From assembly GCA_964016885.1 (NCBI GenBank), contig OZ024756.1, positions 12,648,001-12,712,000 of the forward strand: 64,000 nt of DNA, in the 5' to 3' direction. A program made the position numbers and the translations under genes. The notes beneath the pieces were generated by a model. That model saw only the letters and a list, made by a program, of their open reading frames with translations. It made no database searches and was not told the origin of the DNA. Of this stretch, positions 8,870 through 37,003 are shown one piece after another (positions within the stretch are counted from its first letter, which is position 1; each line of letters begins with the position of its first letter). The DNA comes from Eledone cirrhosa. Lineage: Eukaryota.

Positions 8870-8909
8870 TGCTAGATTCTATAGCAGTGTTGCTACGACA
8901 CTGCAGCAG

Positions 8910-8946
<37 letters not shown>

Positions 8947-15014: not shown

Positions 15015-15046
<32 letters not shown>

Positions 15047-15056
<10 letters not shown>

Positions 15057-15432
15057 GGAGATGAAATAAAGATGGTTATAAGAGTTCCATATATTTTATT
15101 ATACGTATTTATTTTGAATACAAAATCAACCTGGGAAGATGTTGTGTTCTCATCAGATAAAAAATAAGGTACAATGATAAGAGGTATAATAGCACTTTCC
15201 TATAAACAAGTGCTATTATGCCTCTTATCATTGTACCTTATTTTTTATCTGAAGAGAACACAACATCTTCCCAGGTTGATTTTGTATTCGAAATACGTAT
15301 AATAAAATATATGGAACTCTTATAACCATCTTTATTTCATCCCTATTATATATACTCCAGTTCTACCAATTGTTGAGTGCTACTTATCTGATATATGCAT
15401 AGTTTTATTGTTCTACAATATTACTCACCTTC
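15047..15432 (+). mobile_element. Fold-back Penelope-type pLTR remnant between (TA)n tracts
   Basis: ~145-bp inverted arms 15047-15197 / 15208-15354 containing a hammerhead motif, followed by unique tail and (TA)n. Confidence 0.7.
15243..15307 (+). ncRNA. Type-I hammerhead ribozyme (CUGAAGA variant)
   Basis: ttttat-CTGAAGA-gaacacaa...ttgtattc-GAAA-tacgta-TA-ataaaa; palindromic stem III; opposite arm has CTGATGA but a damaged GAAA. Confidence 0.65.
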
Positions 15433-15495
15433 TATATATATATATAAATATATATATATAAATATATATATATGTGTGTATCATCATCACCACCA

Positions 15496-16359
15496 TCTAT
15501 ATATTAATTTCAACAATGTCAGTATTCCGTGTGTCATAATTCTCGATTATCATTGGTTCATAGGTTTCAAACGACTCCGCCCACCTCAACGGCGCCAAAC
15601 TTAAATTAATATGCATAATACCAATGAGGGAGTGAGAGGGGAGAGTAAGAAGAGTAAGAAACAGAGAGGCAAAGTGAACGCTATAACTATTACCATGTCT
15701 GCGTGTGTATGTACGTGCACGGATGTTTATGTGTGTGTGCGTGCGTTCGTGCAGCGTTCCACAGAAAGTAAAAGCAATTCGACTTTATCAAACAGTGAAC
15801 TACAGTGGCGACGGCGTGCAGCCAGGAATGAAGAAAAACGGGCCGAACAGCGCCATCGGAACGTCAAACTTCAGAGGCGAAGACGTGCCACCATGAATGA
15901 AGAGGAGCTGGCTGAACAACGCCAACGAAACACTGGAGCCAAGCAGCAATGGCGTGCTGCGATGGTTGAAGACGAACTGGCTGAGCATCATCTTTTATAT
16001 TAATCATCTATATCTATATATAATATAAAAGATTGGACCTTTCATCATCGTTTTGAGAAACATGGAACAACCATGTTTATGCAATTAAACACGTTTTACA
16101 GTTAGGCAGAAGATGAACCATCTCCTAGAGGTCACTATTCTAGGTGGGAGCCCCTAGAATTGTTCATATACTATGCACAAATGGTACAACGAAGAATCTG
16201 GTATATCTGGAAGATTTTTTTTACTGTTTTTTGTATCACACAGACACCACGGACTCGCCTCATACTGTAACCAGACAAACATCCAATACAGTCATTTTCT
16301 CGTTTACCTGTCTTCTCTTATCATCTGTTTACCCGGGCGAAGCTGGGTACGTTAGCTAG
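15496..16359 (+). mobile_element. Non-autonomous Helitron
   Basis: A|TC 5' end; STPR-like R/E-rich repeats (15780-15990); helicase C-terminus-like GTTKNLVYLE; 3' hairpin acccgggcgaagctgggt then CTAG|T. Confidence 0.75.
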
Positions 16360-16477
16360 TCATCTTAATGTCTGCTTTCCTTCCTACCAAGTAGTGAAGC
16401 AGGCTACTGATCTCCCAGACACCCAGACAGATCTGTATCTCGCTTATCTACACTCTCAAAGATATATAGATAGATAG

Positions 16478-16838
16478 ATTTCTTTATTAGCCACAGGGGC
16501 ACAAAAGAAGGGGACAAATACAAAGGGGGAAGTTTACATACAATAAAAACGTGTAAAATATTATCACAAATGCAATTTAAAAAATTAGTCGATTTTCCCC
16601 AATAGGAGGAGACATTACATATGGGTAACACATAACCCCGAAAAAAAATGTGCAACCCTCATCTCCAGGAGTACGAAGAGTTTGTACTCCTTTCCTCTCC
16701 TCCTCCTTTTCCTCAACCTACAGGCTGATATAGAGAGAAGGCCCATTCTCGCCACTTTCACCCACCTTTCATAAAATTTGTTGGGGTACAGCACCTCTCT
16801 CTCCATCCTGATTCTTCTTCCAAAGTGGTATTTGAAAA

Positions 16839-16840
<2 letters not shown>
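16478..16840 (-). mobile_element. L1/Tx1-like LINE 3' fragment within (TAGA)n
   Basis: FFKYHFGRRIRMEREVLYPNKFYERWVKVARM matches 24128-24260; 3' UTR with AATAAA; (TAGA)n on both sides. Confidence 0.75.
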
Positions 16841-16877
<37 letters not shown>

Positions 16878-16879
16878 TA

Positions 16880-17017
16880 GCGTCAGTGATGGCAAGTACA
16901 CCATCATCATTAAGTATACACTTCTCCCCGACAATATCACGGTTTTCCTTGACACATTGCCTAGCAATCCTGAACACCTCACGTTTTTGGTCCTCACGTT
17001 GTAGAACATGCTTGAAC
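16880..17017 (-). mobile_element. RTE LINE fragment
   Basis: KFKHVLQREDQKREVFRIARQCVKENRDIVGEKCILNDDGVL resembles the RTE ORF linker between EN and RT. Confidence 0.55.
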
Positions 17018-17644
17018 TTATATATATATATATATATATACACATACATCAGAAAATGTAGAAAACTCAGATGCAGGAAGTATCTGCAAATACAACCGGT
17101 TGTTATAAACAATAGCTTAGAAGACTGGGTGGAAAAAAGTGGGCAGTGGCTACTACAAGGAGTGCTGGTGCCGTGGTAAAATACACGCAATAAAATGTGC
17201 CGAATGCGCTCTGTAAATGGTTGGCAAATGACAACAATGTAAGGTGGAGAGGACTTGATTGGTCTTATGAAGAACACGAAAACCTCTGTAGAGCTGGTGC
17301 CAAGATAAAATGCACCAACTACACTGTGTAATGTGTTAGAAAGGGCATCCAGCCATAGGACATATGCCAAAAATGGAACATATCAGTGAGAAGTGGCAGT
17401 TCTTTAAGGTAAACCCAAATAAGAACTCAAAGATGAACTCTTCAACCCATACCAAACATAGAAACTGGATGAAAAAAAATGATAATTTTTTAGTTTAAAT
17501 ATAAATTTCTGCAATTCTGTTATAACACGTAAAGAAAGAGGAGTACCGGACTACCTCATACTACTCCTCTTTCTTTATATCTGCTGCCTGCGTGAATATA
17601 TGCGTGTGTAAAAGGAAGGAGGGGGTGTGTGTGAAAAAATTACA

Positions 17645-17870
17645 CTGTGTGTGCGTTTGTGTGAATGTATGTGTCTCCGTTTGTGTGAATGTATGTGTCT
17701 CCGTTTGTGTGAATGTATGTGTCTCCGTTTGTGTGAATGTATGTGTGTTTGTGTGAATGTATGTGTGCGTTTGTGTGAATGTATGTGTGTGTTTGTGTAA
17801 ATGTATGTGTGTGTTTGTGTGAATGTATGTGTGTGTTTGTGTGAATGTATGTGTGTGTTTGTGTGAATGC
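17645..17870. repeat. 22-24-bp (TG)-derived minisatellite
   Basis: gtttgtgtgaatgtatgtgt(ctcc) repeated ~10 times. Confidence 0.85.
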
Positions 17871-18169
17871 ATGTTGTACTTTTGTAAGCGTGTCTGTATT
17901 TGAACTTTTATATTTATATACTTATACATATAAATGCATGCATATGCACATACACACATACGCATCAGCCTATGGAAAAAAATTTCTAATTTCTTGAGAT
18001 TATTTCCCCTTATCCTTGAGAGTTGCTAACAATTCCCACTAGGTGTTTGTATTCCTGCAACTAAAAGGCAAATTTCAATAAACTAAGTATTATATAGTGT
18101 ACAACATTGAGTACATCTCTTGTTGTATTGATAGGAAAATAGATGTTATTCTTACTGCAGTAAATGTAA

Positions 18170-21100
18170 TGAAACTAGTTGTTGTTGTAGCAGTGAAACT
18201 GTAGTTGTTGTTGTAGTGAAGTTGTTGTAGTGACATTAGATGTAGTGGTAGTAGTAGTTGTTGTAGCAGTGAAACTGTAGTTGTTGTTGTAGTGGTAGTA
18301 GTAGTAGTTGTTGTTGCATGAAACTGTAGTTGTTGTTGTAGTGACATTAGATGTAGTGGTAATAGTAGTTGTTGTTGTTGTCATGAAACTGTTGTTGTTG
18401 TTGTTGTGGTAGTAGTAGTTGTTGTAGTGAAACTGTAGTTGTTGTTGTAGTGAAGTTAGATGTAGTGGTTGTTGTTGTTGTAGTGAAACTGTAGTTGTTG
18501 TTGTAGTGAAGTTAGATGTAGTGGTAGTAGTTGTTGTTACAGTGAAACTGTAGTTGTTGTTGTAGTGAAGTTGTTGTAGTTAAATTAGATGTAGTGGTAG
18601 TAGTAGTTGTTGTAGTGAAACTGTTGTTGTTGTAGTGAAGTTAGATGTAGTGGTAGTAGTAGTTGTTGTTGCAGAGAAACTGTAGTTGTTGTTGTAGTGA
18701 AATTAGATGTAGTGGTGGTAGTAGTAGTTGTTGTAGTGAAACTGTTGTTGTTGTTGTAGTTAAACTGTTGTTGTTGTTGTTGTAGTGAAATTGTAGTGAA
18801 ATTAGATGTAGTGGTAGTAGTAGTTGTTGTTGTAGTGAAGTTAGATGTAGTGGTAGTAGTAGTTGTTGTTGCAGTGAAACTGTAGTTGTTGTTGTAGTGA
18901 AATTAGATGTAGTGGGAGTAGTAGTTGTTGTAGTGAAGTTGTTGTTGTTTTGGGGTTGGTTAGAGGTTGTTGTTGTTTTGGGGTTGGTTAGAGGTTGTTG
19001 TTGTTTTGGGGTTGTTGTTGTTTTGAGGTTGTTGTTGTTTTGAGGTTGTTGATGTTTTGGGGTTGTTGTTGTTTTGGGGTTGTTGTTGTTTTGAGGTTGG
19101 TGATGTTGTTTTGAGGTTGTTGTTGTTTTGAGGTTGGTGATGTTGTTTTGAGGTTGTTGTTGTTTTGGGGTTGTTGTTGTTGTTTTGAGGTTGGTGATGT
19201 TGTTTTGAAGACGTATTCAGGCAGCTACTGTTGTTTTGAAGCTACTGCTGATGTTGGTGTTGTTGTTCAGGTTGTTTTGAAGCTGGTGTTGTTGGTGTTG
19301 TTTAGAGGCTGCTGCTGTTGCTGTAGTGACTGTAGTAATAAACAACACCGCTGCTGCTGCTGCTGCTGCTGCTGTTGTTGTTGTTGTTGTACTGCAAATC
19401 ATGTTATTGTAGTGTACTTGCAGCCAGTGCATTGTTGCTGCTGCTATTGTTGTGTTTGTTCTTGCATCAACAACACATGCACCAGCCCCAACACTGCCAC
19501 CTACACATACACTCCTCTCACCACCACCACCACCACTGTCATCCCCATCACCACCCTCACCACCGCTGTCATCACCACCACCACCACCGTTGTCATCCCC
19601 ATCACCACCCCCACCACCACCACTGGCATCCCCATCACCACCCTCACCACCGCTGTCATCACCACCACCACCACCACCACCACCCTCACCACCGCTGTCA
19701 TCACCACCACCACCACCACCACCACCACTGTCATCACCACCACCACCCTCACCACCGCTGTCATCACCACCACCACCACCACCACCACCGCTGGCATCCC
19801 CACCACCACCACCACCACCACCACCGCTGGCATCCCCACCACCACCACCACCACTGTCACCACCACCACCACCACCACCACCACCACTGTCACCACCACC
19901 ACCACCGCTGGCATCTCCATCACCACCCCCACCACCACCACCACTGCCACCCCCACCACCACCACTGCCATCACCACCACCACCACTGCCATCCCCACCG
20001 CCAACACTGCCATCCCCACCACCACCACTGCCATCCCCACCGCCAACACTGCCACCCCCACCACCACCACTGCCATCCCCACCGTCAACACTGCCACCCC
20101 CACCACCACCACTGCCATCACCACCACCACCACTGCCATCCCCACCGCCAACACTGCCATCCCCACCACCACCACTGCCATCCCCACCGCCAACACTGCC
20201 ACCCCCACCACCACCACTGCCATCCCCACCGCCAACACTGCCATCCCCATCACCACCACTGCCATCCCCACCACCACCACCACTGCCATCCCCACCGCCA
20301 ACACTGCCATCCCCACCGCCACCACTGCCATCCCCACCGCCACCACTGCCATCCCCACCACCACCACTGCCATCCCCACCGCCAACACTGCCATCCCCAC
20401 CGCCAACACTGCCATCCCCACCGCCACCACTGCCATCCCCACCACCACCACTGCCATCCCCACCGCCACCACTGCCATCCCCACCGCCAACACTGCCATC
20501 CCCACCACCACCACTGCCATCCCCACCACCACCACTGCCATCCCCACCGCCACCACTGCCATCCCCACCGCCAACACTGCCATCCCCACCGCCACCACTG
20601 CCATCCCCACCGCCACCACTGCCATCCCCACCGCCACCACTGCCATCCCCACCGCCACCACTGCCATCCCCACCGCCACCACTGCCATCCCCACCGCCAC
20701 CACTGCCATCCCCACCGCCAACACTGCCATCCCCACCACCACCACTGCCATCCCCACCACCACCACTGCCATCCCCACCACCACCACTGCCATCCCCACC
20801 GTCAACACTGCCATCCCCGCCACCACCACTGCCATCCCCACCGTCAACACTGCCATCCCCACCACCACTGCCATCCCCACCACCACCACTGCCATCCCCA
20901 CCACCACCACTGCCATCCCCACCGTCAACACTGCCATCCCCACCACCACCACTGCCATCCCCACCACCACCACTGCCATCCCCACCGTCAACACTGCCAT
21001 CCCCACCACCACCACTGCCATCCCCACCACCACCACTGCCATCCCCACCACCACCACTGCCATCCCCACCACCACCACTGCCATCCCCACCGTCAACACT

Positions 21101-21800
21101 GCCATCCCCACCACCACCACTGCCATCCCCACCGTCAACACTGCCATCCCCACCACCACTGCCATCCCCACCACCACCACTGCCATCCCCACCACCACCA
21201 CTGCCATCCCCACCGTCAACACTGCCATCCCCACCACCACCACTGCCATCCCCACCACCACCACTGCCATCCCCACCGTCAACACTGCCATCCCCACCAA
21301 CACTGCCATCCCCACCACCACCACTGCCATCCCCACCACCACCACTGCCATCCCCACCACCACCACTGCCATCCCCACCACCACCACTGCCATCCCCACC
21401 ACCACCACTGCCATCCCCACCACCACCACTGCCATCCCCACCACCACCACTGCCATCCCCACCGCCAACAACATCAGCATCACTCCAACTCCCAACAACC
21501 CTTTTAGTACTGTTCCTGATGATGATGATGACAATGCTGCTGCTGCTGCTGCTGCTGGTGATGATGATAATGATGATGAGGATGATAGTGATGATGATGA
21601 TGATGGTGAGGGTGATGATGATGATGATGGTGAGGATGATAGTGATGATGGTGATGGTGATGATGATGATGATGATAGTGGTGATGGTGATGGTGGTGAT
21701 GATGGTGATGGTGATGTATTTACACTGAAGCAGACATGTTTTTGTTGTACTGCTGCCAGTCAACTCATGCTGCTGTTGTTGTTGTTGTTGTTGTTAGTGC
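18170..21800. repeat. Composite low-complexity block B with a 21-bp CAC-rich minisatellite (19520-21470) and GAT/GGT tract
   Basis: Unit cactgccatccccaccaccac with gcc/gtc/aac variants. Confidence 0.9.
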
Positions 21801-21860
21801 AACTGCACCTTAAATATGCCAGTGGGGAGAAAGCAAGGAAACAATATATGTATATATGTA

Positions 21861-21917
<57 letters not shown>

Positions 21918-22214
21918 CACACACTTACACCTCTCCAAGACAATGTCACTAGACCGAGATCTTTGGCGCTACACAGTAATACAGAAGACCCGCCTTACCT
22001 AAGTACAAAGTGAAACAAACCTACTACAGTCAGTAGGCACCTCTAACAAAAATACACCTCCGTCCCACTACCCCCACCCCATCCACACCACCCCTTTCAA
22101 TGTAAAGTTATGTTGGTACCACAACATCCAGTCCGAACCAAAACAAATGAGGTTGTGTAGGTGTCACAACAAAAATTTAAAAAACAGTCCACGCTGTAAT
22201 GTGGCCGTATAGGT

Positions 22215-22410
22215 AACATGGTAAAAACCTCCCAGTCCCACACTGTAAATGTGGTTGGTGTTAGGAAGGGCATCCAGCCGTAGAAAACCCGCCAGACAGT
22301 CCTATGCGAGCAAGACAACCACTCTTGCCTCAAGTGGGAAAACTCCCGTCCAAACCCATGCAAGCGTGGAAGATGGACGTTAAACGATGATGATGATGTT
22401 GATGATGACA
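22215..22410 (+). mobile_element. SINE 3' half with RTE-type tail
   Basis: ggtgttaggaagggcatccagccgtag...catgcaagcgtggaagatggacgttaaacgatgatg. Confidence 0.7.
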
Positions 22411-22417
22411 TATATAG

Positions 22418-22459
<42 letters not shown>

Positions 22460-22594
22460 GATTTAATGCTCTGAAATAGCGATATATATGTGAAGACAAA
22501 CATAGAATATTCGAAAATATTCTGTATGTTTATAATAAACATTTTGAAGACCTAATCGCTATAGAATAGAATACGTCACGTATTACAATTTGAG

Positions 22595-22683
22595 ATTCTC
22601 GATAAAAGCAAGGGAAGTAACCTACGCGTTTCATTCTTATTTGAAATCATCAGGATTACATATCCAATGCTTTTATCGAGAAT
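22595..22683 (-). ncRNA. Type-I hammerhead ribozyme (copy 1)
   Basis: Reverse complement of 23176-23264. Confidence 0.75.
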
Positions 22684-22868
22684 GACACAGCTAGAGACTT
22701 ATAGAATACTTAGCTGTGTACAGGAACTGGTTTGAAAGAGCGGTTGCCGGTCCGGCAGAAATTAGAATTTGGATTTAATGCTCTGAAATAGCGATATATA
22801 TGTGAAGACAAACATAGAATATTCGAAAATATTCTGTATGTTTATAATAAACATTTTGAAGACCTAAT

Positions 22869-22947
22869 CGATAAAAGCATTGGATATGTAATCCTGATGA
22901 TTTCAAATAAGAATGAAACGCGTAGGTTACTTCCCTTGCTTTTATCG
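22869..22947 (+). ncRNA. Type-I hammerhead ribozyme (copy 2)
   Basis: gtaatc-CTGATGA-tttcaaataagaat-GAAA-cgcGTA-ggttac; outer stem gataaaagca/tgcttttatc. Confidence 0.75.
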
Positions 22948-23175
22948 AGAATCTCAAATTGTAATACGTGATGTATTCTATTCTATAGCGATTAGGTCTT
23001 CAAAATGTTTATTATAAACATACAGAATATTTTCGAATATTCTATGTTTGTCTTCACATATATATCGCTATTTCAGAGCATTAAATCCAAATTCTAATTT
23101 CTGCCGGACCGGCAACCACTCTTTCAAACCAGTTCCTGTACACAGCTAAGTATTCTATAAGTCTCTAGCTGTGTC

Positions 23176-23264
23176 ATTCTCGATAAAAGCATTGGATATG
23201 TAATCCTGATGATTTCAAATAAGAATGAAACGCGTAGGTTACTTCCCTTGCTTTTATCGAGAAT
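23176..23264 (+). ncRNA. Type-I hammerhead ribozyme (copy 3)
   Basis: Same core with 16-bp outer stem attctcgataaaagca/tgcttttatcgagaat. Confidence 0.78.
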
Positions 23265-23424
23265 CTCAAATTGTAATACGTGACGTATTCTATTCTATAG
23301 CGATTAGGTCTTCAAAATGTTTATTATAAACATACAGAATATTTTCGAATATTCTATGTTTGTCTTCATATATATATATATATATATAGTATGTATATAT
23401 ATATACACACTAATCAGTATACAC

Positions 23425-23723
23425 TGAGGATGAAAAACTCAGAGCTGTACGGGAGCCTCCCAAACGTCAGCTCAAATGTGACACAGAGGAGACTGAGGTT
23501 AGCTGGACATGCTCACCGACATCCAGAGTTGACACTGCACTCAGTGCTCCTGTGGGAGCCCCTCCATGGACACACTGGAAGAGAGAGACCGAGGTTGACA
23601 TATGTTGATGCCCTAAGGACAGACACTGGTCTGTTGGAGACGCAGGACATGGCAGCGATAATGAGGGACAGAGACCGCTGGAGAGAACTCGTCCATGGAT
23701 CTCGGAAATTTTACCCGCCCTAG
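23425..23723 (+). mobile_element. RTE-clade LINE 3' end with (TAGA)n tail
   Basis: RRLRLAGHAHRH...LLWEP.HG....RPRLTYVD....D....MRDRDRWR, typical RTE/RTEX C-terminus. Confidence 0.8.
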
Positions 23724-23734
23724 ATAGATAGATA

Positions 23735-23842
23735 TGTTTCTTTATTAGCCACAGAGGCACAAAAGAAGGGGACAAATACAAAGGGGGAAGTTTACATACA
23801 ATAAAAACGTGTAAAATGTTATCACAAATGCAATTTAAAAAG
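23735..23842 (-). mobile_element. Short 3'-UTR piece of the Tx1-like LINE
   Basis: Near-identical to 16478-16585. Confidence 0.75.
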
Positions 23843-23867
23843 TTACCCGCCCTAGATAGATAGATAT

Positions 23868-24825
23868 GTTTCTTTTATTTGCCACTAGGGCATCAAAAGT
23901 GGGACAAGTACAAAGGGGGGAGTTTACACAAAAAGGCGTCCTCAATAAGGAGGCAATAACAAAATATAAAAATAAAATAAGATATAACAAAAAATAAAAT
24001 TTATAACAAAATCCTCAATAGAGAGGAGGCGCCTTGGGGGGTCGCACACACCCCCGAAAAAAGTGTGCAACCCTTCTCCTCAGGAGCACAGAGAAGGGGT
24101 GCTCCCTTGGTCTTTCATCTTCCTCACCTATAGTCTGATGTAGAGTGAAGGCCCATTCACACGGGCCATTCTCGCCACTTTCACCCACCTTTCATAAAAA
24201 CGGCTGGGGTGCAGCACCTCTCTCTCCATCCTGATCCTTCTTCCGAAATGATATCGGAAGAAACGGACCAGTAGTTGGCCAGAGAGAAAGGTGCCTGACC
24301 TCAGTCCTTTCAGACGCGTCCACCATACAACCTCTTTCGCCATGGCTATTACGCACAGAAACACCGCCTCTGTTTCATCTTTGAAGGGGGGAGGCGGCTT
24401 GATCATTACAATAGACTCGGTGGTCAACCGGATCGGTCCCACCCTTGACAGCAGTTCGACATAGCCCCACAGATCGGCTACGCCCGAGCAGTGTACCAAT
24501 GCGTGTGCAACGGTTTCCTCGTCGCACACGCATCTGGGACAGATCTTTTTGGCGGGGTCCCTACCCGGGCGCCCGTGTCTGTAGAGCCTTTCTCGAACGG
24601 GTAAAGCCCCTCGGTAGCACTGCCAGGCCAGGGACTTCTGGAAGTTGTCCATAGGTCCCGGGCTGAATGTCCTACCGAACAGGCTGGCCAGTTCGTCCTC
24701 CTCCATGTCTAGGGCTTCTCCGAGGGCGTCGTCGCACCTGCTGCGTACCAGCCCTCTATAGAATGTTGCGGTGGAGTCTCCACTGATAACCGGATCCGCC
24801 TGCCAGAGGGCGGTGAGCGCCTGGG
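23868..24825 (-). mobile_element. L1/Tx1-like LINE, 5'-truncated (ORF2 C-terminus with zf-RVT)
   Basis: LAWQCYRGALPVRERL...CPRC..DEETVAHALVHC...LW motif; open frame to stop at 24128; flanked by (TAGA)n. Confidence 0.85.
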
Positions 24826-24900
24826 TAGATAGATAGATAGATAGATAGATAGATATACATACATAGTATGTGTATACACACATATATGTCTGACGGTGAT

Positions 24901-24967
<67 letters not shown>

Positions 24968-25199
24968 ATATATAGAGAGAGAGTCTGTGGTGCTGAGACC
25001 GAGGAGACCACTAATCATGTGAGTACTTAATACATGGAGAGATGTAGAGTGGGTAGAGAGAGATGTAAAATCCCAACCGAGTCACCAAGCCAAAACCGCT
25101 TGGTGCCTCAGTCGGGATTTTACATCTCTCTCTCTACATACATACAGATATATATTTTTATTTTTTTTTTTTATTTTTATTTCTTTCTCTCCTACTAAT

Positions 25200-25582
25200 A
25201 TAAACATATATCTAAATTTTCCAGAGCGTTTAAAATAACGGTTTTTCAATCATATACCTCAACCCCATTTACATATTCATTTGCATACTCATTCTAACAA
25301 TTTTGAAAAATCCGTTCTTTAAATTCACTATCCAAGGAAAATTCAACTGATAAAGTATGTTTCCTTGGCTATGTCAAAATTTATAAAACACACTTTGTAT
25401 TTTATCTGATGAAAGTGTACCAAAGTTTTTGGTGCCCTTGAAATATATATAATAGAATAAATATAGTTTCCATTTATTTAATATCATTGAATATTTACTC
25501 CAGAAATCTCTCGAGTGCTCTGAATCAGTTATAAACATTTATATTTGTTGAATTTCCAACAAATTAAATATCCCTTCTGGTT
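25200..25582 (+). mobile_element. pLTR-like module with hammerhead, ending in (TA)n
   Basis: Homologous to 35190-35402. Confidence 0.7.
25398..25459 (+). ncRNA. Type-I hammerhead ribozyme
   Basis: tattttat-CTGATGA-aagtgtaccaa...ttggtgccctt-GAAA-tatata-TA-atagaata. Confidence 0.7.
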
Positions 25583-25685
25583 ATATATATATATATGTAT
25601 GTGAAAGGTAAACAGAAATTTCAACACAATCGGTACAGTATATGGAAAGTATATATTAGGTTAACGCTTGATATAGCAGGAAGAG

Positions 25686-25726
25686 GGTTTTAACGTTTCG
25701 GACGCTAGTCCTTCATCAGAAGAAAG
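25686..25726 (-). ncRNA. Minimal Penelope-type hammerhead motif
   Basis: Minus strand CTGATGA-a-ggac-tagc-gtcc-GAAA-cgtTA; stem I weak. Confidence 0.55.
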
Positions 25727-25879
25727 AATGAGAAATAAAACAGATTAAGGGGACGGGCGGGATGGAATTGGAAAAAATGCCCTTAGATAAAAATAATAAG
25801 TCAATTCATGTTGACATCTCTTGCAAAACTGTTGGTGCTGGCTTTTTGTGTATGATTTGTTTTTTAGAAAAGTGGATGG

Positions 25880-26220
25880 TGGCGCATGGCTTAGTGGTTA
25901 GAGCATTGGGCTTGCTAATCGAAAGGTTGTGAGTTCAATTCTCAGACCGGGTGATGTGTTGTTTCATTGAGCAAGACACTTTATTTCACATTGCTCCAGT
26001 TTATTCAGCTGTAGAAATGAGATGATAGGACTAGGGTCCCTATCATTCCACTGCAAAGTGGTCGTGGAGGTGCCACGGCATAAAAGCACCCAGCACTCAC
26101 TGTAAATGAGGTCGGTGTTAGGAAGGGCATCCATCTGTAGAAATCAAGCCAGAATCAGTTCCCGTCCCACCGTTGCAAGCAGGGAAAAGCGGACGTAAAA
26201 TGATGATGATGATGATGATA
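25880..26220 (+). mobile_element. SINE family A, full length
   Basis: Aligns end to end with 6727-7062; (GAT)n tail. Confidence 0.85.
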
Positions 26221-26439
26221 TATATATACATATATATGTGTGTATATATATTTATATATATGTACGTACATGTGTATATATATAATTAATTAAGGTTAAA
26301 GAAAGTGCTCAAACGCAGAAATGTTATAAAGATAGCTTATAAAATGGGGTGAAGACCCTTAAAAGACTGAAAAATAATTTGCCAACAACTGGTATGAGGA
26401 CTTGAACCCCATATCTTCCCTGGAATAATAATAATAATA

Positions 26440-26765
26440 ATTGTTTCTACTTTTGGCACAAGGCCAGCAATTATCCCAGTGCATTACTGGTACTTTATTT
26501 TATCAACCCCGTAAGGATGAAAGGCAAAGTTAACCTCGGCGGGATTTGAACTCAGATCATAAAGGCCCATAACTCCATGCTGAAAAGCATGGCATCCAAC
26601 CCTCTACCGATACTGCCAATCCACCGCCCTAATAATAATAATAATAATAATTGTTTCTGATTTAGGTACAAGGCCAGCAATTTTGGGGGAGGGGATAGTT
26701 GATTTAGTCGACCCCAGTGCATTACTGGTACTTTATTTCATTGATCCCATAAGGATGAAAGGTAA
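26440..26765 (-). mobile_element. Two family-D SINEs with (TTA)n tails
   Basis: aaggatgaaaggcaaagttaacctcggcgggatttgaactcag. Confidence 0.75.
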
Positions 26766-26789
26766 GGCTAAGGGTTGTATATATATATA

Positions 26790-27527
26790 TAAACTATAAT
26801 AAAGTAAGGAGCGCTTCCTTGTCACACTTCCTTTCTCTCACTTCCTCCCCCCCTTCACCTCACCAATTGACAGTCCTGGGGAGAGGGTGATGTTCTCCGC
26901 CAGGTTTAAATGGTCCAGTCACTCTAAGTCCCTTACGACCCCATCAGTTACAAGTCCCTATATATACAACCTTGAAATACCATAAAATAAAACGTAAAAC
27001 TCTAACCCCATTCTTTTGTTTCTCTTATTTTACTCTAGTTTTCACTCCTTTATTTCTAATCTAAACTATAAAACTGCGTACGGTTTATAATTTTTTATCC
27101 CCTTAGTAAAATAAGTTGGATTACTTTGAATAAATAATGAATGAATATTACATAATTTATCTACTAAATTTCGTGGCTGTTGATTAAATATATTTTATTA
27201 CTTATTTTAAGATTCACTTCTTTAAAATTTCTGAAATGTCAACACTTTCGGTTGGCCATCGCTTAAATAAACATTAATTTTCTGTCATTAATTTTCTCCT
27301 AATGCAGTTTATATATAATATCGTCTTTTTTAATGTATCATGGATTACGTTACTGATTACATAAGACAGTGTAACGCAGTCTTCGTTCAATTTCTATGTA
27401 TTATATATTGTCAATTACGATTTTATTTGATGTATCATATCTACATGTATATACACTTGCGTATAATATCAATATAGACACTATCCACGCAATCAGAAAA
27501 CCACCCAAAAGGTGGTTTTTCTGCTAG
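26790..27527 (+). mobile_element. Probable non-autonomous Helitron
   Basis: 3' hairpin aaaaccacc-caaaa-ggtggtttt followed by CTAG|T; 5' boundary uncertain. Confidence 0.5.
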
Positions 27528-27859
27528 TATATATAAGTATATATAAACCTGCAGAGCAAATATTTACACTATATTTTCATTTATGCATGCATCCACACCT
27601 GTCAGTGCATAATTATATATGAGCCTAAATCCAAAATTATTACTATTAATGTTCTCATTATTATTTTTACTTGTTACCTTCAGTATTTTTATGTTTAATC
27701 ATTTTACTTTTATTAACATCATTTTCCATATATGGTAGCTGGAAATCATTTGGCTATTCTAAAAAGAATATTAATCTCCTGATTTTTTATAGCAAGAATA
27801 TTTCGGATGAAAGCAGAAATTCTTTGCTTAAACATTTAATCTGTACTAATTTATATATA

Positions 27860-28832
27860 TATACAATGCTGAAAAAGATAGAAAGCTGAACAAAAATGAA
27901 CTGTAAGGTGAGGTAACGAAAAGTAAAAGTTACTTTGCTCTTCTTTTATCTGTCCAATATTTCGGGACCTAAAAGTCCCTTCATCAAAGTTTAAAGAACC
28001 TTCAGTGGATAATGTTCCAATTTCCTCTCTTTGGGATAAAATTTTTTCTCAGTCGTTTCCAAGCGTTTTTTGAAGGTTACTTCGCTTTCTAAGTTAATGA
28101 CGTCAATTGCCAATATAGTATTTCGTGATATCAATTTTCTTTTTTGTATGAGATGTTTAGTTTGTGTGCCTGTGGGGGAGTCTTTTTATGTCAAGTACTG
28201 TGTGCTGAGTTCTAATCTATTATTTATTTGCAGGTTGAGTCTACGTATGAGCAAGGCTTCCTTAATTCTTAAGTTGCCCACATTTCTATCACTGGCTTTA
28301 ACGGTAATGGTAATTTGTTGGTTGATGTTTCTACATTTGTCAATGTAGTTTTTGAATAAGGATGCGCGTGTGTTGAGGTGTTCTTTAATGTGAGTGTGGA
28401 GTGCTCGCGTTGTGCTACCAATCTAGAACTCCTTACATTTGTTGCATTCAATCTGGTATACCACATGTCCGCTGGCACATACCTGAATCGCGGATAGGGC
28501 AGTTAGTCAGCGAGCATTGATTGTTGTTGTCTCTGGATTGTTTTTGAGACAGGTATCCATGCAGTGAAGGGCCGGAGTGTGCTAACTGTATATCGAGTCC
28601 TTCTTTGCGGATAGCTGTGGCATTGATTTCACTGAAATGTGGTTATTTCATGAAGCAGGTATTAGAGGAGGTCTTATGTCTGCAACGCCTTTGATTCATT
28701 GTGGATGTTGGCTTTCTGTTTGTCTTGGACAGATAAAACAACAACAACAAAACAAAACAAAGATTACCAGATAACTTCTACTTTTCGGTACCTCACCTTA
28801 TTGCATTATTTAGCCTTCTATCTCTTTCAATG

Positions 28833-28835
<3 letters not shown>
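27860..28835 (-). mobile_element. Penelope-like retroelement remnant with inverted pLTR ends
   Basis: GIY-YIG remnant; 27865-27957 inverted at 28725-28832; degenerate hammerhead (t)TGATGA-agggac...gtccc-GAAA at 27960-27987; (TA)n both sides. Confidence 0.85.
28186..28700 (-). pseudogene. Penelope GIY-YIG endonuclease, disrupted
   Basis: CASGHVVYQIECNKCKEF*IGSTTRALHTHIKEH...LRIKEALLIRRLNLQINNR; stop and frameshift. Confidence 0.85.
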
Positions 28836-28889
<54 letters not shown>

Positions 28890-28892
<3 letters not shown>

Positions 28893-29070
28893 ATAATAAT
28901 AAATTTGAAGACTAAAATCCAAAGAGGGCTCGATAAGGATAAATATATATCAAATATATAAGAATCGTAGAGCAAATATTTATTAAAATAACAGATTAAA
29001 GTTTAAGCAAAGAATCGCTGCTTTCACCCTTAACAGGATCTTCTGAAACTAACAAAGTCAATCTGTAAAC
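28890..29070 (-). mobile_element. Degenerate pLTR/hammerhead module
   Basis: Minus strand cAGAAGA-tcctgttaagggt-GAAA within cagatt/aatctg stem, ~130 nt upstream of (TA)n. Confidence 0.4.
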
Positions 29071-29147
29071 GCAGAAGTGAATATTTCAAAAAAACGTTGC
29101 AACCGGAGGAAGACAGGAAGACGATACTTTGGTTCGTGGAAACGTTC

Positions 29148-29728
29148 CCTGGGATCAATTCTACCAACTGTATTGTTGCTTTAAATTAGGATCAATTCTA
29201 CCAACTGTATTGTTGCCTTAAACTGGGATCAATTCTACCAACTGTATTGTTGCTTAAACTGGGATCAATTCTGCCAACTGTACTGTTGCCTTAAACTGGG
29301 ATCAATTCTGCCAACTGTATTGTTGCCTTAAACTGGGATCAATTCTACCAACTGTACTGTTGCCTTAAACTGGGATCAATTCTACCAACTGTACTGTTGC
29401 CTTAAACTGGGATCAATTCTACCAACTGTACTGTTGCCTTAAATTGGGATCAATTCTACCAACTGTACTGTTGCCTTAAACTGGGATCAATTCTACCAAC
29501 TGTACTGTTGCCTTAAACTGGGATCAATTCTACCAACTGTACTGTTGCCTTAAACTGGGATCAATTCTACCAACTGTACTGTTGCCTTAAACTGGGATCA
29601 ATTCTACCAACTGTAGTGTTGCCTTAAACTGGGATCAATTCTACCAACTGTACTGTTGCCTTAAACTGGGATCAATTCTACCAACTGTACTGTTGCCTTA
29701 AACTGGGATCAATTCTACCAACTGTACT
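29148..29728. repeat. Tandem array, 37-bp unit, ~16 copies
   Basis: Unit actgggatcaattctaccaactgtactgttgccttaa. Confidence 0.95.
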
Positions 29729-29789
29729 CCTTCCGTATAAATTCATGGCATTTTTTTTAGTTATCTTTATTATCATTATAAAGATTAGA

Positions 29790-30545
29790 ATGTTGAGTGA
29801 CACGGTCAGTGAAACAATATTTTCCTGTCTCTTTATGTTTTGAGTTCAAATTCTGCCAGAAGTTTCTTTGCCTTTCTTACAGCCAGGGAGATCAAATAAG
29901 ACTTTGTCATATACTGATTCATATTAACTTGATACACTATTTTTTACACATTGGAGCTGAAGAAATAATCATCATCATCATCATTGGCTGACAGTGTGAG
30001 ATATGAATGTATTGGATAAAAATACCTTGTAATGTTTTTATATTCTGAGTTCAAATCCCGCCGAAGTTAGCTTTGCTTTTCATCTTGACAGGGTTGATAA
30101 AATAAAGCAGCAGTAATGCACTGGATTTGATTTAATAGACATTTCCCTCCCTCAAAATTGTTGGCTTCGTGCCTAAATCAAAAACAATTATTATTGTTGT
30201 TGTGGTTCAAATGCTACCAAGGTTAGCTCTGCCTTTCATCCTTACGGGGTCGATAAAATAAAGTACCAGTAATGCACTAGGGTCGATAAAATAAAGTACC
30301 AGTAATGCACTAGGGTCGATTTAATCAACTTTCACCTCCGCTTCAAATTGCTGGCCTGGTGCCTAAAGTAGAAGCAATCATTGTTGTTGTTTAAATTCCA
30401 CCGAGATTAGCTTTGCCTTTCATCCTTACGGGGGGTGGGGGGGGGGGGGATAAAATAAAGTACCAGTAATGTACTGAGGTCATTTTAATTGACTTTCCCC
30501 TCCCTCTAAAATTGCCGGCCTTGTGCCTATACTAGAAATCATTAT
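29790..30545 (+). mobile_element. Head-to-tail cluster of ~4 family-D SINEs
   Basis: Repeated ttcaaat...gcctttcatccttacggggtcgataaaataaagtaccagtaatgcact...gtgcctaaa. Confidence 0.75.
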
Positions 30546-30724
30546 TAGTCGTTGCAGACATTTCAATATCATCTCCTGAGTACAAACAAGGATGTTTCAC
30601 AATAGAAACATCCACCCCTATTCTACTGAGCCCCCCCTCCCACACACACACACTCCTTACTCCCTCTCTTTCTTCTACCTCCCACATACCCACCCTAACA
30701 TCACATCTCTCCTGTCTCTTGACT

Positions 30725-32370
30725 AAGGCTGTTGTTGTTGTTGTTACTGCTGTTTCTTTTGTTGTTGTTGTTGTTGTTGTTACTGCTGTTTCTATTGTTG
30801 TTGTTACTGCTGTTTCTAGTGTTGTTGTTGTTGTTGTTGTTACTGCTGTTTCTATTGTTGTTGTTGTTACTGCTGTTTCTAGTGTTGTTGTTGTTGTTGT
30901 TGTTACTGCTGTTTCTATTGTTGTTGTTGTTGTAGTTACTGCTGTTTCTATTGTTGTTGTTACTGCTGTTTCTAGTGTTGTTGTTGTTACTGCTGTTTCT
31001 ATTGTTGTTGTTGTTACTGCTGTTTCTATTGTTGTTGTTGTTGTTGTTGTTGTTTCTGTTGTCATTGTTACTGCTGTTTCTAGTGTTGTTGTCGTTGTTG
31101 TTACTGCTGTTTCTAGTGTTGTTGTTGTTGTTGTTACTGCTGTTTCTATTGTTGTTGTTGTTGTTGTTACTGCTGTTTCTAGTGTTGTTGTTGTTGTTTC
31201 TAGTGTTGTTGTTGTTGTTGTTGTTGTTACTGCTGTTTCTAGTGTTGTTGTTGCTGCTGCTGCTGCTGTTTCTAGTGTTGTTGTTGCTGCTGCTGCTGTT
31301 TCTAGTGTTGTTGTTGTTACTGCTGCTGCTACTGTTGTTGTTGCTGTTACTGCTGTTTCTAGTGTTGTTGTTGTTGCTGCTGCTGTTTCTAGTGTTGTTG
31401 TTGTTGTTTCTAGTGTTGTTGTTGTTGTTACTGCTGCTGTTTCTAGTGTTGTTGTTGTTGTTACTGCTGTTTCTAGTGTTGTTGTTGTTACTGCTGCTGC
31501 TACTGTTGTTGTTGCTGTTGTTACTGCTGTTTCTAGTGTTGTTGCTGCTGCTGCTGCTGCTCCTGTTGTTCCTATTATGGCCAATGTTATTGTTACTACA
31601 TCTACAATTGCTGTTGTTGTTGTTGCTACCACAACCGTTGTTGTTGTTGTTGTTGTTGTTGCTGCTGTCATGGCAAATGTTAATGTTATTGCATCTATAA
31701 TGGCTGTAGTTGTTGTTGTTGTTGCAGCTATCACAGTTGTTGTTGTTGCTGCTACCAAGGCCATTGTTGTTGTTGTTAGCATTGTTGTTCTTATTCATGC
31801 TGTTGTTGTTGTTGCTGCTGCTGCTGCTACTACAGCAGTTGTTGTTCTTGTTGTAGCTGCTGACTAAACAGTCACATGTCCTCCCCTCACCTTTCTCTAA
31901 TATAGTCTTTATTTCTAACACACACACTCACACAGACACACACATCCACACACACACTCACACATATCCACACACACACGGACACTCACACAGACACACA
32001 CACACAGACACTCACACAGACACACACATCCACACAGACACTCACACATCCACACAGACACACACATCCACACACACATAGACACACACACCCACACATA
32101 CACACACACAGACACACATCCACTCACACATCCACACAGACACTCACACTTGCATCCACTCATATAGACACATACACTCACACATGCATCCACTCACAGA
32201 GACACCCGCATCCACACAGACATTTCCTCCCCACTCCACACACACACACAGATAAACACACAGAGTCACCCCCATACACACACACACACAGATACAAAGA
32301 TACACATCCGCACTGACACTCACACACACACACAGACACACATCCACTCACACACACACATACATACACA
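30725..32370. repeat. GTT-rich compound minisatellite (30725-31865) plus CA-rich tract (31918-32370)
   Basis: (gtt)n-actgctgtttcta units; (CA)n variants. Confidence 0.9.
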
Positions 32371-32449
32371 GCAACTGATTTTAACCAATAAATTCACCAT
32401 CATACTCATAACATCACAATAGCTTTAATTATATGTATGTCTCTATACT

Positions 32450-33572
32450 GCTGAAAGGAAAACTGCGGCTCCTTTGCTGACCCAACAGTTGATGTCGAGC
32501 TCTGTTGCCATTGCTTGCCAGGATGCTGGCCAGATATGTGAAGTGATCGACTTCCTCCAGGTCCTGTTGGTTGACTCTGATCACTGGACCTGTGTTGTTG
32601 GCTGTTCTCATCACCTTGGTCTATTTGGTGTTGATTCTCAGGCTGATCTTTTCCGCACTCTCTTGCAGGGGATGTTGTTAGGGCTTGCAGGTCTACACTG
32701 TCTTCAGCGATCAAAGCGATGTGATCAGTGAATGCCAGGTAACCTCGGCCTCGACTGGCTTCTCCGTGGGATTCCTCGATCGGGTCCTTCATCTGTTCAC
32801 CTCAGAACGAAATCGGCTGCCAACAGGAACAACAGCGGAGAGAGAATGCAGCCCTGTCTGACTCTGGAGACAATGTCAAAGAACTCCATCACACCGGACT
32901 CAGTTTGCACGCAGCAGACTGGAGTTTGAGTACAGGACCTTGAAAATGGCGATGAATCTTACAGGAATGCCATACGAGTGCGCGATATTCCACAGAGATT
33001 CCTGGTGCACATTGTCGAATGCCTTCCGGAAATCAATGAAGTTGAGAACCAAAGAGTGGTGGAGCTCAACGGCCAAGCACAGCCTGGTCATCTTCATGCA
33101 TCAGCACCAGGATCAAGCTGTACCTGTACAAGAGCATCGTGCTGTCGACGGTGCTTTACACGAGTGAAACCTGGAAGATCATGGCAAAGATAGAGAGATA
33201 GTTGAACATATTCCACCAACGGTGCCTGCGTAGGATCCTTCATGTGTCCTGGCACAACCAAGTGCGAAACGAGGAAATCCTGCGGAGTCGTGGACGCTAC
33301 AGAGGATGTCGCAGAGTGCCAGTGCTGCCTGGTTGGCCATATTCTGCGCCTGCCCAACAAACGACACTCAAAACCAGCGATGAACTGGACTCCACCTGGC
33401 AGCAAATGTAGGTGGGGTTGCCCCAGGATCACCTGGCGTTGAACGTTCCGAAAAGAACTAATGGCAGCCAACATCACTTGACACAGACGCGATAAAGCCG
33501 CAGCAAATCGTAACCGTTGGCGAGTACTTACTGCTTGTTGTGTCAAACGGGGCGGAAGAGCCTAAAACTAAG
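32450..33572. mobile_element. RTE LINE with 5' inversion (RT piece on -, 3' end on +)
   Basis: Minus: FIDFRKAFD, VRQGCILSP, LAFTDHIAL, EVDHFTYLAS; plus: VLYTSETW, FHQRCLRRIL, GHILR, RITWR, RNRWR. Confidence 0.85.
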
Positions 33573-33673
33573 ACTCATATACCACATCGGTGTGGGTATA
33601 TACACACATATATATATGTGGGTGTATACACACATATATATATGTGTGTGTACGTATATATATATATATATTT

Positions 33674-33959
33674 ATTAAGAAAGTAAAACAAAGAAGCCTT
33701 CAATACATCAAAAGTCTTTATTAGCCGACAATGTTTCGTCCTATCGGCCGATAATACTTCTTGTTGTTTTAATTGCCCTGATGAGTCCTTAATAGGACGA
33801 AACATTGTCGGCTAATAAAGACTTTTGATGTATTGAAGGCTTCTTTGTTTTACTTTCTTAATTCTTCGGCTCTGTTTAACTACATTGAGCTATACCTTTT
33901 ACTGTCATTTCTATAATACGAAGAGGGTGTTTGACTCAAACACGCTCCAGTATTTTAAC

Positions 33960-33962
<3 letters not shown>
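33674..33962 (+). mobile_element. Fold-back pLTR remnant between (TA)n tracts
   Basis: 71-bp inverted arms 33674-33744 / 33792-33862. Confidence 0.75.
33771..33817 (+). ncRNA. Type-I hammerhead ribozyme with canonical core
   Basis: gcc-CTGATGA-gtcct-taat-aggac-GAAA-catt-GTC-ggc. Confidence 0.8.
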
Positions 33963-34018
<56 letters not shown>

Positions 34019-34257
34019 AGGTGGTTGGTCCACGTTTTGTTTGCCAAATTTGGAGGGCGAGTGAGGTTTGGTTTGGCAGGAATCATGAGTGAAGGTTGGC
34101 GTTTGGTTTAGGGTGTCAGCTGAGGGTTGGACAGATTGGAACGATAACAATCTTATTTACATATATATATATGTACATATATATTGATGATGATGATGAT
34201 GATGATGATGATATATATACATATGTAAATGTTTATATATAAATATGTAAATGTATA

Positions 34258-34995
34258 TCTTCTTCGACCACTTATTCCTGAGAGGGTCGTTGGGGGCAGA
34301 GTCCTCAAACACTCCTTCCAGCGGGTCCTGTCAGAATCAACCATCTCCAACTGATCTGGTTGGATCCCCAAGTGAGACCAGCCAAGCTCATGGATGTTAT
34401 CCAACCATCTTGCTTGGGGTACTACTCCTGGGTCTCCTGCCAGTTGGTTTTGCCTGTAAAATCTGACCAGCGATTCTTTCCTGAGACATTCTAACCACAT
34501 GCCCATAGTGTCAGAGCTGTGGTCTCTCAATTCGGAGAATTAGCTGTTCTACCTAGAGTGGCTCTCTTATCTCTGAGTTACACACTTTATCGAGTAATGT
34601 TACTCCAAAGACCCATTGGAAGAATCCCATTTCGGCTGCTTGTATTCTCCATTGTATTCTTTCAGTCATTAACCAAGATTCATGACCATAGGTAAGGGAT
34701 GGCACAAAAACCAAATTGAGGATAGCGAGCTTGGCTTTTATGTCTACCTCCGTTCTTTTGATTGTTGAAGCTGGTGCATTACTACACCAGCTTCTGTAAT
34801 TCTTGCACTTAATTCAGCCTCCTACCTTCCATCGCTCATGAACACAGCCCCAAGATACTTGAACTTCTCTACCTGCTTTAGTGGAACTCCATTTACATCT
34901 AGAGTTCACTGCCTTAAGTGTCTCAGTTTTTGCAGCACTGATTTTCATTTCAGCCATGCAGCACTCAGAATCAAACCTATCAAGTGCAAGTTGAA
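34258..34995 (-). mobile_element. RTE LINE 3' portion, degenerate
   Basis: MKISAAKTE, KYLGAVF, PQARWLDNIHELGW...DRTRWK; related tails at 46725-46885 and 50040-50225. Confidence 0.75.
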
Positions 34996-35014
34996 TATAT
35001 ATATATATATATAT

Positions 35015-35401
35015 ATTCAATATTAAATAAAATGAAACTATATTTATAAAATAATATTTATTCTATTATATATATTTCAAGGGTACCAACAACTTTGGTA
35101 CACTTTCATCAGATAAAATACAAAGTGTGTTTTATAAATTTAACGGTTGGAGTTTTCCTTAGATAACCGTTAAGGTATGTTCCTTGGTTATGTCGAAATT
35201 TATAAAACACACTTTGTATTTTATCTGATGAAAGCGTACCAAAGTTGTTGGTACCCTTGAAATATATATAAGGGAATAAATATGGTTTTATAAATATAGT
35301 TTCCATTTATTTAATATCATTGAAAACTTGTTGAGTGCTCTGAATCAGTTATAAACATTTATATTTGTTGAATTACCAACAAATTGAATATCCCTTCTGC
35401 T

Positions 35402-35402
<1 letters not shown>
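35015..35402 (+). mobile_element. Fold-back pLTR module with two hammerheads (- 35060-35122, + 35215-35280)
   Basis: CTGATGA-aagcgtaccaa...ttggtaccctt-GAAA-tatata at 35225-35270 and its reverse complement; same family as 25200-25582; (TA)n both sides. Confidence 0.75.
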
Positions 35403-35433
<31 letters not shown>

Positions 35434-35449
35434 CACACAACTTTGAATG

Positions 35450-35545
35450 AACACATCTGATGAACACTGATCAATGCTGGCGTCAGGTCTATCATATTGA
35501 TGCAGACCTCGAACCAGTCATCTGTGAAATATATGTAACGATCAA
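35450..35545 (+). ncRNA. Hammerhead-like motif with extended stem II
   Basis: CTGATGA (35457)-aca...ctgg..aggtct..agacct..ccag...tgt-GAAA (35526); stems I and III poor. Confidence 0.4.
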
Positions 35546-36095
35546 TATTCAATAAACACATTTTAATGTGAAACTTTATACAAAACATCATATATAACTT
35601 ATATACATCTGCTATAGTATAGAGTTCTTAAGTCAGTGCTGCCCCCTGTAATCAACAAATTTACAGAATTTATTATGGCTAAGTAGTGGATATTGTCTTG
35701 ACCATAACAAAAAAAAAAAAAGGGTCGATCAACTTTCGTCAAATCGGACCGAAGAAACAATATTTTCATCGGTCTTTCCAGTTGCTAGTACTATCTATCG
35801 GTTGCAACTCCAGTTAGAAGGAGCAACGTGAAATAAAGTGTCTTGCTCAAGGACATAACGTATCGCTCGGTCCAGGAATCAAACTCACAACCTCAAGATT
35901 GTGAATCCAATGAATATTTAAACTCTACTTTGGTACTAAGTGCTCTTTTCTCTCGCCCCAACTACATACCGATGTAAATCATCATCATTTTTATGTTCAA
36001 TTTTCCACGCTTGCATGGGTTGGACGGGTCCTTTTCAGCACAGTATCTCTCCACTCACTGCATTCCTACACACACACACACACACATATACACAG

Positions 36096-36950: not shown

Positions 36951-37003
36951 CAATGAAGATATATATTAGTTTCACACTTAATATATATATATATATATAT
37001 ATA

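Follow-up and report, generated by a model that had tools for sequence, protein, structure and literature searches.

Penelope-like elements (PLEs) of the Hydra clade have been described as carrying a hammerhead motif near the 3' end, inserting into (TA)n and forming an inverted, 5'-truncated copy with a tail at one end only, and the families listed for this clade include one from Octopus bimaculoides (Craig et al. 2021, PMC8557442). Minimal hammerheads in metazoan PLEs were reported earlier (Cervera and de la Pena 2014, PMC4209133), and for the metazoan non-long-terminal-repeat (non-LTR) retrozymes mobilisation by PLEs has been proposed from co-occurrence and phylogeny (PMC7229834; bioRxiv 10.64898/2026.07.22.740005). 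For Poseidon PAc of Anolis, a predicted dimer, in vitro work found both target strands cut and extended, with two internal RNA start sites bounding the tail (Frangieh et al. 2024, PMC11167929). These sources have thus already published hammerheads in pseudo-long terminal repeats (pLTRs) and their pairing on opposite strands, as well as the inverted truncated copies, tails at one end and (TA)n targets of Hydra elements. The tandem and inverted PLE insertions and their one-sided tails are a named open task in PMC8557442, while for the enzyme that mobilises animal retrozymes PMC7229834 and the 2026 preprint offer a proposal and no demonstration.

Here we analyse a window of 64,000 nt from Eledone cirrhosa (assembly GCA_964016885.1, contig OZ024756.1, positions 12,648,001 to 12,712,000; coordinates below are those of the window), in which an earlier note, made from the sequence alone, had described hammerhead modules beside (TA)n tracts between 15,047 and 35,545, a pattern that is textbook for Hydra elements. 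What the locus and its relatives supply is a counted end-pairing rule and a candidate start signal of 20-30 nt; the hairpin, the pairing counts and the PLE-type retrozyme ends presented below were not found in the literature searched, which did not extend to subscription papers. We consider it likely that the modules are the 3' ends (pLTR, predicted hammerhead, tail) of 5'-truncated PLEs in (TA)n, with mirror insertions arising from two-strand priming at two RNA sites. More tentatively, and leaning only slightly towards it, we propose that Hydra PLEs of corals, sea cucumbers and this genome use a pair of hairpins to set two reverse transcriptase (RT) starts, that a two-headed enzyme primes both, and that a PLE copies a 312-nt hammerhead circle likewise; if true, the one-sided tail and the inverted copy would be explained, with sequence-level evidence for PLE spread of animal retrozymes.

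The cores of the window belong to eight repeat families (A-H), as the earlier note had estimated, each with 165-5165 first-look candidates in the genome; the 25-30 best loci were studied per family, a few of them two arms or duplicates of one insertion. Its attribution to diverse Penelope-type families is borne out, as upstream homology common to several loci enters open reading frames (ORFs) with PLE RT and GIY-YIG in all families except B and H. The link runs through L044, L051 and L052 for A (ORF recovered in pieces), L098, L108, L109 and L232 for C (541 aa), L154, L156, L174 and L233 for D (RVT_1, E=9e-6), L192 for F (469 aa) and L226 for G, where a 767-aa ORF with YRDD and YIGST lies behind an inverted short arm; for E it is found in other copies, and the window copy holds a frameshifted thumb/GIY-YIG remnant (28225-28726, 75-78% to L004). 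Family G was also the only Hydra-type family whose GIY-YIG was matched in Pfam (E=0.003, below cut-off). Assigned by motif, A, C, F and G appear to be Hydra-clade PLEs: a CxCX5C linker, a GIY-YIG without CCHH cysteines, and a terminal CxxC plus CxH are seen in G, F, A (L052, L055) and C (L109), with the linker decayed in L232 of family C, and DKT replaces DKG in A (L228) and C (L244), a region not recovered in F and G. The N-terminal RWK motif was not found in the six stretches scanned, the copies being 5'-truncated. The G, F and C proteins are 38-47% identical to one another and gave no match to E. In D and E, a Cys linker precedes a GIY-YIG with internal CxxC, and we take D to be Neptune-like and E to be Nematis-like, labels presumed from linker motif patterns. 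A 'reduced linker' remark in PMC8557442 also enters into these labels.

Targeting of (TA)n is shared by the families with an ORF and by H, with (TA)4+ within 40 nt of the end at 26/30 A, 28/30 C, 19/25 D, 17/30 E, 22/25 F, 30/30 G and 13/25 H loci (chance 10.6%). In family F, a GT-AG intron of about 770 nt separates the ORF from the hammerhead. Most copies retain it, among them L179, L194 and L199, whereas L178 lacks it exactly and L192 has lost four further bases with it; since it is kept in some copies and precisely excised in L178, copies must have passed through RNA. A retained spliceosomal intron, a trait of endonuclease-bearing (EN+) PLEs, was seen in family F only, and the AT-rich, non-coding 3' part of family G (1.8 kb of an element of more than 4 kb) may likewise be intronic. 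Family G is young (copies 98-99% identical); family H is old (73-85% identity between copies) and yielded no ORF in 25 loci with 1.5-kb flanks. The Naiad-like or Neptune-like ORFs beside L035, L096, L185, L232 and L244 were set aside as neighbours and not carriers. At L232:3-2519 and L244:450-2522, other long PLE ORFs (839 and 691 aa) lie directly upstream of family C elements and combine an RT with a C-terminal GIY-YIG containing CxxC.

In the Hydra-type families, TA-flanked ends fall at two sites, a short and a long one, and the distance between them is 78 nt in family A, 87-99 nt in C, 87 nt in F and 100 nt in G. A strict tally, restricted to pairs in which TA flanks each arm and the arms meet within -30 to +40 nt of each other, gave 41 long+short, 2 long+long and 1 other two-armed insertions (n=44), counts from which short+short pairs are largely excluded by design, since the long end was part of the queries used for A, C, F and G; a looser tally took in 65 pairs across all families. 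Among the 41 pairs, the arm reaching further 5' was the short-ended one in 16 (by >10 nt) and the long-ended one in 17, with equal reach in 8, and short-ended arms could exceed their partners by up to ~880 nt (for example 1135 vs 373 and 1151 vs 271 nt). Overlaps were found at 22 of the 41 junctions, 18 of them by 1-6 nt. The inverted 5'-truncated copy with a tail at one end only, another EN+ PLE trait, is present here.

The tails of these families carry a bulged hairpin with the layout RCTC, upper stem, loop, upper stem, 2-nt bulge, GAGY. Its 3' strand accounts for the GAGTGCT and GAGCT that the earlier note had picked out as a tail motif, whereas the GGTACC grouped with them lies in D and E, which lack the hairpin. 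It occurs in 16/24 A, 23/31 C, 22/26 F and 25/27 G long tails (shuffles 0-8%) and in the majority or half of the long tails of six smaller hammerhead clusters, and is absent from the long tails of B, D (0/10), E (0/5) and 14 other clusters. The hairpin starts 0-7 nt past the short site, and a second one lies 7-11 nt past the long site in L042 and L050 (A) and L195 (F), all read-through copies; this check covered A and F, as C and G had no read-through copy, and a pair of similar spacing is present in L300. Across 60 evenly spaced 10-kb tiles (600 kb) of this 3.0-Gb, microsatellite-rich genome, 33 of 64 hairpins sit 20-110 nt before (TA)n, and shuffled tiles held 22-24 hairpins in all.

Among 20 hand-picked distinct examples, four of the seven hairpin pairs change on both sides, in an alignment selected by a descriptor that forced six of the seven; the unforced seventh is paired in 19/20, with 10 double changes. 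The upper stem covaries (C-G, U-A, A-U, G-C) with G-U pairs, the 2-nt bulge is one-sided and the basal stem does not vary in sequence. On visual inspection, three of six published Hydra consensuses show this hairpin (Hydra-2_Amil, Hydra-2_Ajap and Hydra-1_Ajap, the last with two copies at its start), Hydra-1_Crog comes close to it, and Hydra-1_Amil and Hydra-1_Obim do not match it clearly, such that it seems readable in coral and sea-cucumber consensus sequences. Elsewhere in the sampled loci, a very common family (L076:400-443, L158:1211-1330, L150:1782) has a bulged hairpin with a long GC-rich palindrome upstream and no descriptor-positive hammerhead that we saw, and L304:3265-4730 holds a tandem array of ~109-nt units with an ACTC...GAGT stem.

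Family B turned out to be a non-coding tandem retrozyme and not a truncated ORF-bearing element, a point that the earlier note had missed. Its 312-nt unit is 98-100% identical among matches, strongly self-paired (z -4.5) and carries one type I hammerhead; it is arranged in head-to-head arrays, the longest of 19 units, that are spread over many chromosomes, with no ORF found in 30 loci and 6 extended loci. In the window, a left arm of 1.3 units (22455..22870, minus strand, core 22653) has the long end, and a right arm of 1.6 units (22868..23367, plus strand, cores 22894 and 23206) has the short end, 36 nt earlier in the unit. Judged by its sequence, family B is a non-LTR retrozyme as these are defined, and carries the PLE end signature. 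Queries without long-end bias gave 35 insertions, 29 two-armed and 6 single-armed, and the two-armed ones comprised 23 long+short (sites 36 nt apart) and 6 long+other, four of which we read as variant or slightly eroded short ends, with neither a long+long nor a short+short pair among the 29. Single-armed insertions ended at the short site in 4/6 and the long site in 2/6, and the longer arm of the long+short pairs was short-ended in 14/23 and long-ended in 9/23.

Variants within family B units are shared between arms. The variant 172G fills 19/19 units of one insertion and is absent from the other 34; 37T, carried by 7/35 insertions, is on both arms in 5/5 two-armed carriers; and 76G, 12C and 164C/182T are likewise common to both arms. 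Arms of several units that have variants in common are what a rolling copy of a single small RNA would give. In 64 arm starts the inner ends did not pile up where the cut is predicted (phase 57), which gives no indication that linear, cleaved RNAs served as templates. Sporadic variants mirrored from one arm to the other, which would mark fold-back, were not seen, such variants being rare. The hammerhead family C6 looks similar to B but has different ends.

To bring these patterns together, we suggest that the endonuclease would nick both strands of a pre-existing (TA)n, after which two RT active sites would start at two sites on the same RNA or on identical RNAs, run variable distances, and leave cDNA 3' ends that would be joined head to head, in many cases through short microhomology. 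The conserved bulged hairpin would mark the two fixed start sites for RT, and family B would result from a PLE enzyme acting in trans that copies a single small RNA, probably a circle, in rolling fashion. Two-strand priming is supported by the two start sites and two-strand extension seen in vitro for Poseidon PAc (PMC11167929). The hammerhead lies 25-200 nt upstream of the start sites, and its closeness to them explains why most truncated copies keep it.

Several observations weigh against two-strand priming at hairpin-marked sites, in addition to the query bias and the descriptor-selected alignment described above. The in vitro work on Poseidon PAc saw equal start sites on both strands and found the hammerhead dispensable for insertion (PMC11167929). 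Eleven of the 41 junctions are gaps of 15-34 nt without overlap, families D and E, with one two-armed copy each in the strict tally, have the same end site on their two arms, and later deletion within palindromes could lengthen either arm relative to the other. The Hydra hairpin is found in 0/30 family B long tails, where there is just a 3-bp stem, and the partner enzyme of family B was not found. The family B variant 265A is arm-specific (2/2 vs 0/4) and three other variants occupy part of one arm; variants confined in this way imply that arrays also change after insertion, by local duplication. The eight equal-armed pairs, several of them at native palindromes and including the family A copy of the window, also count here, and are compatible with the earlier note's view of the mirror copies as fold-back scars. 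On that view, cDNA from the long site snaps back, is copied and stalls at the hairpin, which is located where copy-back would stall, and later deletions at the palindrome centre scramble the arms; the variants common to both family B arms would follow as well. Fold-back may account for the equal-armed insertions, but as a general mechanism in its simple form, without later deletion, it is disfavoured by the pairs in which the short arm reaches further 5'. It is further opposed by the four single-armed family B insertions that end at the short site, by the second hairpins past the long site, outside the cDNA (L042, L050, L195, L300), and by the in vitro start sites and extension on two strands (PMC11167929), and overall we regard it as unlikely.

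Far less probable still, to the point of being very hard to credit, is that mirror pairs are independent insertions into one (TA)n or products of DNA rearrangement, with family B arrays grown as a satellite does, through unequal crossing over. Some tracts of the window are indeed occupied by two different families (C/D, F/E, E/F, C/H), and some family B variants fill adjacent units of one arm only, but no TA tract stands between paired arms, the long+short pairing is strict, rare haplotypes are common to both arms, and independent insertion is at odds with the lack of long+long and short+short pairs in family B, whose insertions are dispersed on many chromosomes with the same two ends. A separate question is the hairpin itself, which might serve another role as a DNA or RNA signal (endonuclease binding to the donor, a promoter, or a 5' untranslated-region translation element), its closeness to the ends being a by-product. 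This we hold to be unlikely. In its favour, where elements lie in tandem the tail doubles as leader for the ORF that follows, the unvarying sequence of the basal stem could reflect binding of a protein to DNA, and family B makes two-site ends without the hairpin; against it stand the covarying upper stem with its G-U pairs, the one-sided 2-nt bulge and the fixed register to both end sites.

We assessed the hammerheads of the window with a strict descriptor (core, stems I-III and NUH site). All cores listed in the earlier note were found in place, and the strict descriptor was passed by 15249, 22894, 23206, 25406, 33778, 35112(-), 29045(-) and a core absent from its list, 22653(-), making eight motifs in the window, every one between 15.2 and 35.2 kb; 35225 was accepted by a looser version. 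Three window copies are decayed, 25719(-) by a change in stem I, 27987(-) by C3>T and 35457 by a broken stem III palindrome, and their family majorities are intact and predicted to fold as type I hammerheads with a palindromic stem III. The distance from core to (TA)5+ is 96-197 nt in 10 of 11 cores, with 474 nt for 22894, in an internal tandem unit, and no (TA)5+ for ~650 nt downstream of 35457, such that the proximity reported earlier holds over a wider range than its 100-160 nt. An Rfam scan returned a sole hammerhead match (33772-33816, Hammerhead_1, 31.7 bits against a cut-off of 34 bits), its other matches in the window being microRNA models driven by microsatellites. Single-sequence folding recovered the hammerhead helices of A, C and F poorly, as expected from the AU-rich nature of minimal motifs. 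That these hammerheads are active self-cleaving ribozymes is predicted from structure, and the palindromic stem III suggests cleavage as a dimer (PMC4209133). The family F hammerhead has A instead of U4 in 23/25 loci and a 5-bp stem III, and may be a natural variant that is still active or, alternatively, a motif that has died within a family that moves; the text of PMC3088659, searched for U4A, yielded nothing. The motif of cluster C27 (L139 near 330-420), unrelated to family F, shares the U4>A core.

Genome-wide, the same descriptor found 47 motifs in 24 sequence clusters in the 60 tiles, and 0, 0, 1, 0 and 1 motifs in five local shuffles. A (TA)5+ tract lies 60-250 nt downstream of 40/47 motifs versus 11.8% of random positions, which makes the spacing non-random as the earlier note had expected, and 20/47 also have one 60-250 nt upstream. 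A rough extrapolation from 47 per 600 kb gives ~2 x 10^5 motifs per 3.0-Gb genome. The eight strict motifs in 20.5 kb exceed the ~1.6 expected from the genome mean about 5-fold, so the stretch is indeed dense, but the suggestion that about one motif per 2 kb sets it apart was rejected, since 4/60 tiles hold 4-5 motifs per 10 kb; motif density here is high but not exceptional, and is a genome-wide property.

All five inverted arms that had been claimed were confirmed, and the remaining modules are laid out along the window as follows. Family A has an inverted arm (15047..15215, minus strand, broken core copy) with the short end, 78 nt before the long end, next to (TA)n at 15021-15054, and a long-ended arm (15190..15432, plus strand), which has a type I core at 15249 with palindromic stem III, a predicted cut after 15301, a bulged hairpin (15354..15378, plus strand; RCTC, upper stem, 2-nt 3' bulge, GAGY) that follows the short-end site immediately, and the tail followed by (TA)n at 15433-15473. 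A single long-ended family C arm (25155..25584, plus strand, core 25406) shares the (TA)n at 25582-25596 with a family D 3' end (25600..25891, minus strand, core 25719 with stem I decayed), presumably Neptune-like by its linker motif. A remnant with a short end (27805..27862, plus strand), which comes from family F or one closely related to it and is missing from the earlier list, keeps only the 3' half of a hammerhead. It is followed by a truncated family E element, presumably Nematis-like by linker motif (27860..28726, minus strand, with pLTR and decayed core 27987), whose inverted arm (28725..28839, plus strand) has the same end site as the main arm. Family F has a long-ended arm (28891..29152, minus strand) with core 29045 (U4>A) and a long stem III, its bulged hairpin lying at 28928-28973 and its hammerhead at 28985-29060 (minus strand). 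Family G combines an inverted arm with the short end, 100 nt before the long end (33674..33744, minus strand), and a long-ended arm (33742..33962, plus strand, core 33778, bulged hairpin 33869-33890). The two-armed family C copy has a short-ended inverted arm (35010..35139, minus strand, core 35112) and a long-ended arm (35165..35404, plus strand, core 35225) in which the 5' half of the hairpin is deleted, and family H (35442..35608, plus strand, core 35457) has a decayed hairpin after 35608 and no intact (TA)n downstream. The (TA)n tracts at 25582-25596, 27852-27863, 28834-28889 and 35402-35429 were each entered by different families from opposite sides, forming chains, and this sharing fits repeated targeting of existing (TA)n.

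Between these modules lie other repeats. Fragments at 16470-16830 and 23730-24830 belong to another non-LTR retrotransposon, ending in (TAGA)n, with what we take to be a zinc-binding, RT-associated C-terminal ORF at 24128-25081 (minus strand), and those at 23400-23700, 32400-33560, 34260-34990 and 36200-36980 are presumably from RTE-like long interspersed elements. Homogeneous minisatellites with units of 59, 73, 51, 50, 37 and 40 nt occupy 1-5756, 29149-29728 and 41817-43739. Open frames without simple repeats at 58365-63071 (minus strand) may be a large exon of the host read in reverse, and the descriptor rejects the three loose CTGANGA..GAAA matches within them.

For experiment, the genome offers as substrates the young family G, with its long uninterrupted ORF, and the young retrozyme B. 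Compared with known systems, Poseidon PAc differs in belonging to another clade, in its ATT target and AC-rich stem loop, and in that the account in PMC11167929, as far as available, reports no pairing of strand to site. The minimal hammerheads of PMC4209133 have in common with ours the type I fold, a short palindromic stem III and an extra base before stem II, and their thousands of dispersed single copies with opposite-strand pairs 100-700 bp apart recur here; the roughly extrapolated ~2 x 10^5 motifs stand against 2,000-9,000 minimal motifs in that source, and the U4>A core and 5-bp stem III set family F apart. Family B resembles the non-LTR retrozymes (tandem units of 150-450 nt) in its 312-nt non-coding unit, the type I hammerhead in each and its dispersal; head-to-head arms, two fixed ends and (TA)n targets are not described for retrozymes in the available text of PMC7229834 and bioRxiv 10.64898/2026.07.22.740005, and those sources show circular RNA for retrozymes, where it is proposed for family B. 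With the Hydra clade of PMC8557442, the families here have in common the C-terminal GIY-YIG without CCHH, the CxCX5C linker, DKT, the hammerhead and (TA)n. The main text of that paper, where neither 'hairpin' nor 'stem-loop' occurs, has neither the bulged hairpin nor the counts of long+short pairs, and the locus differs further in its tails of 78-100 nt versus 30-40 in the Hydra clade, in the size of family G with its long non-coding 3' part, and in bringing at least four Hydra-type families together in one window.

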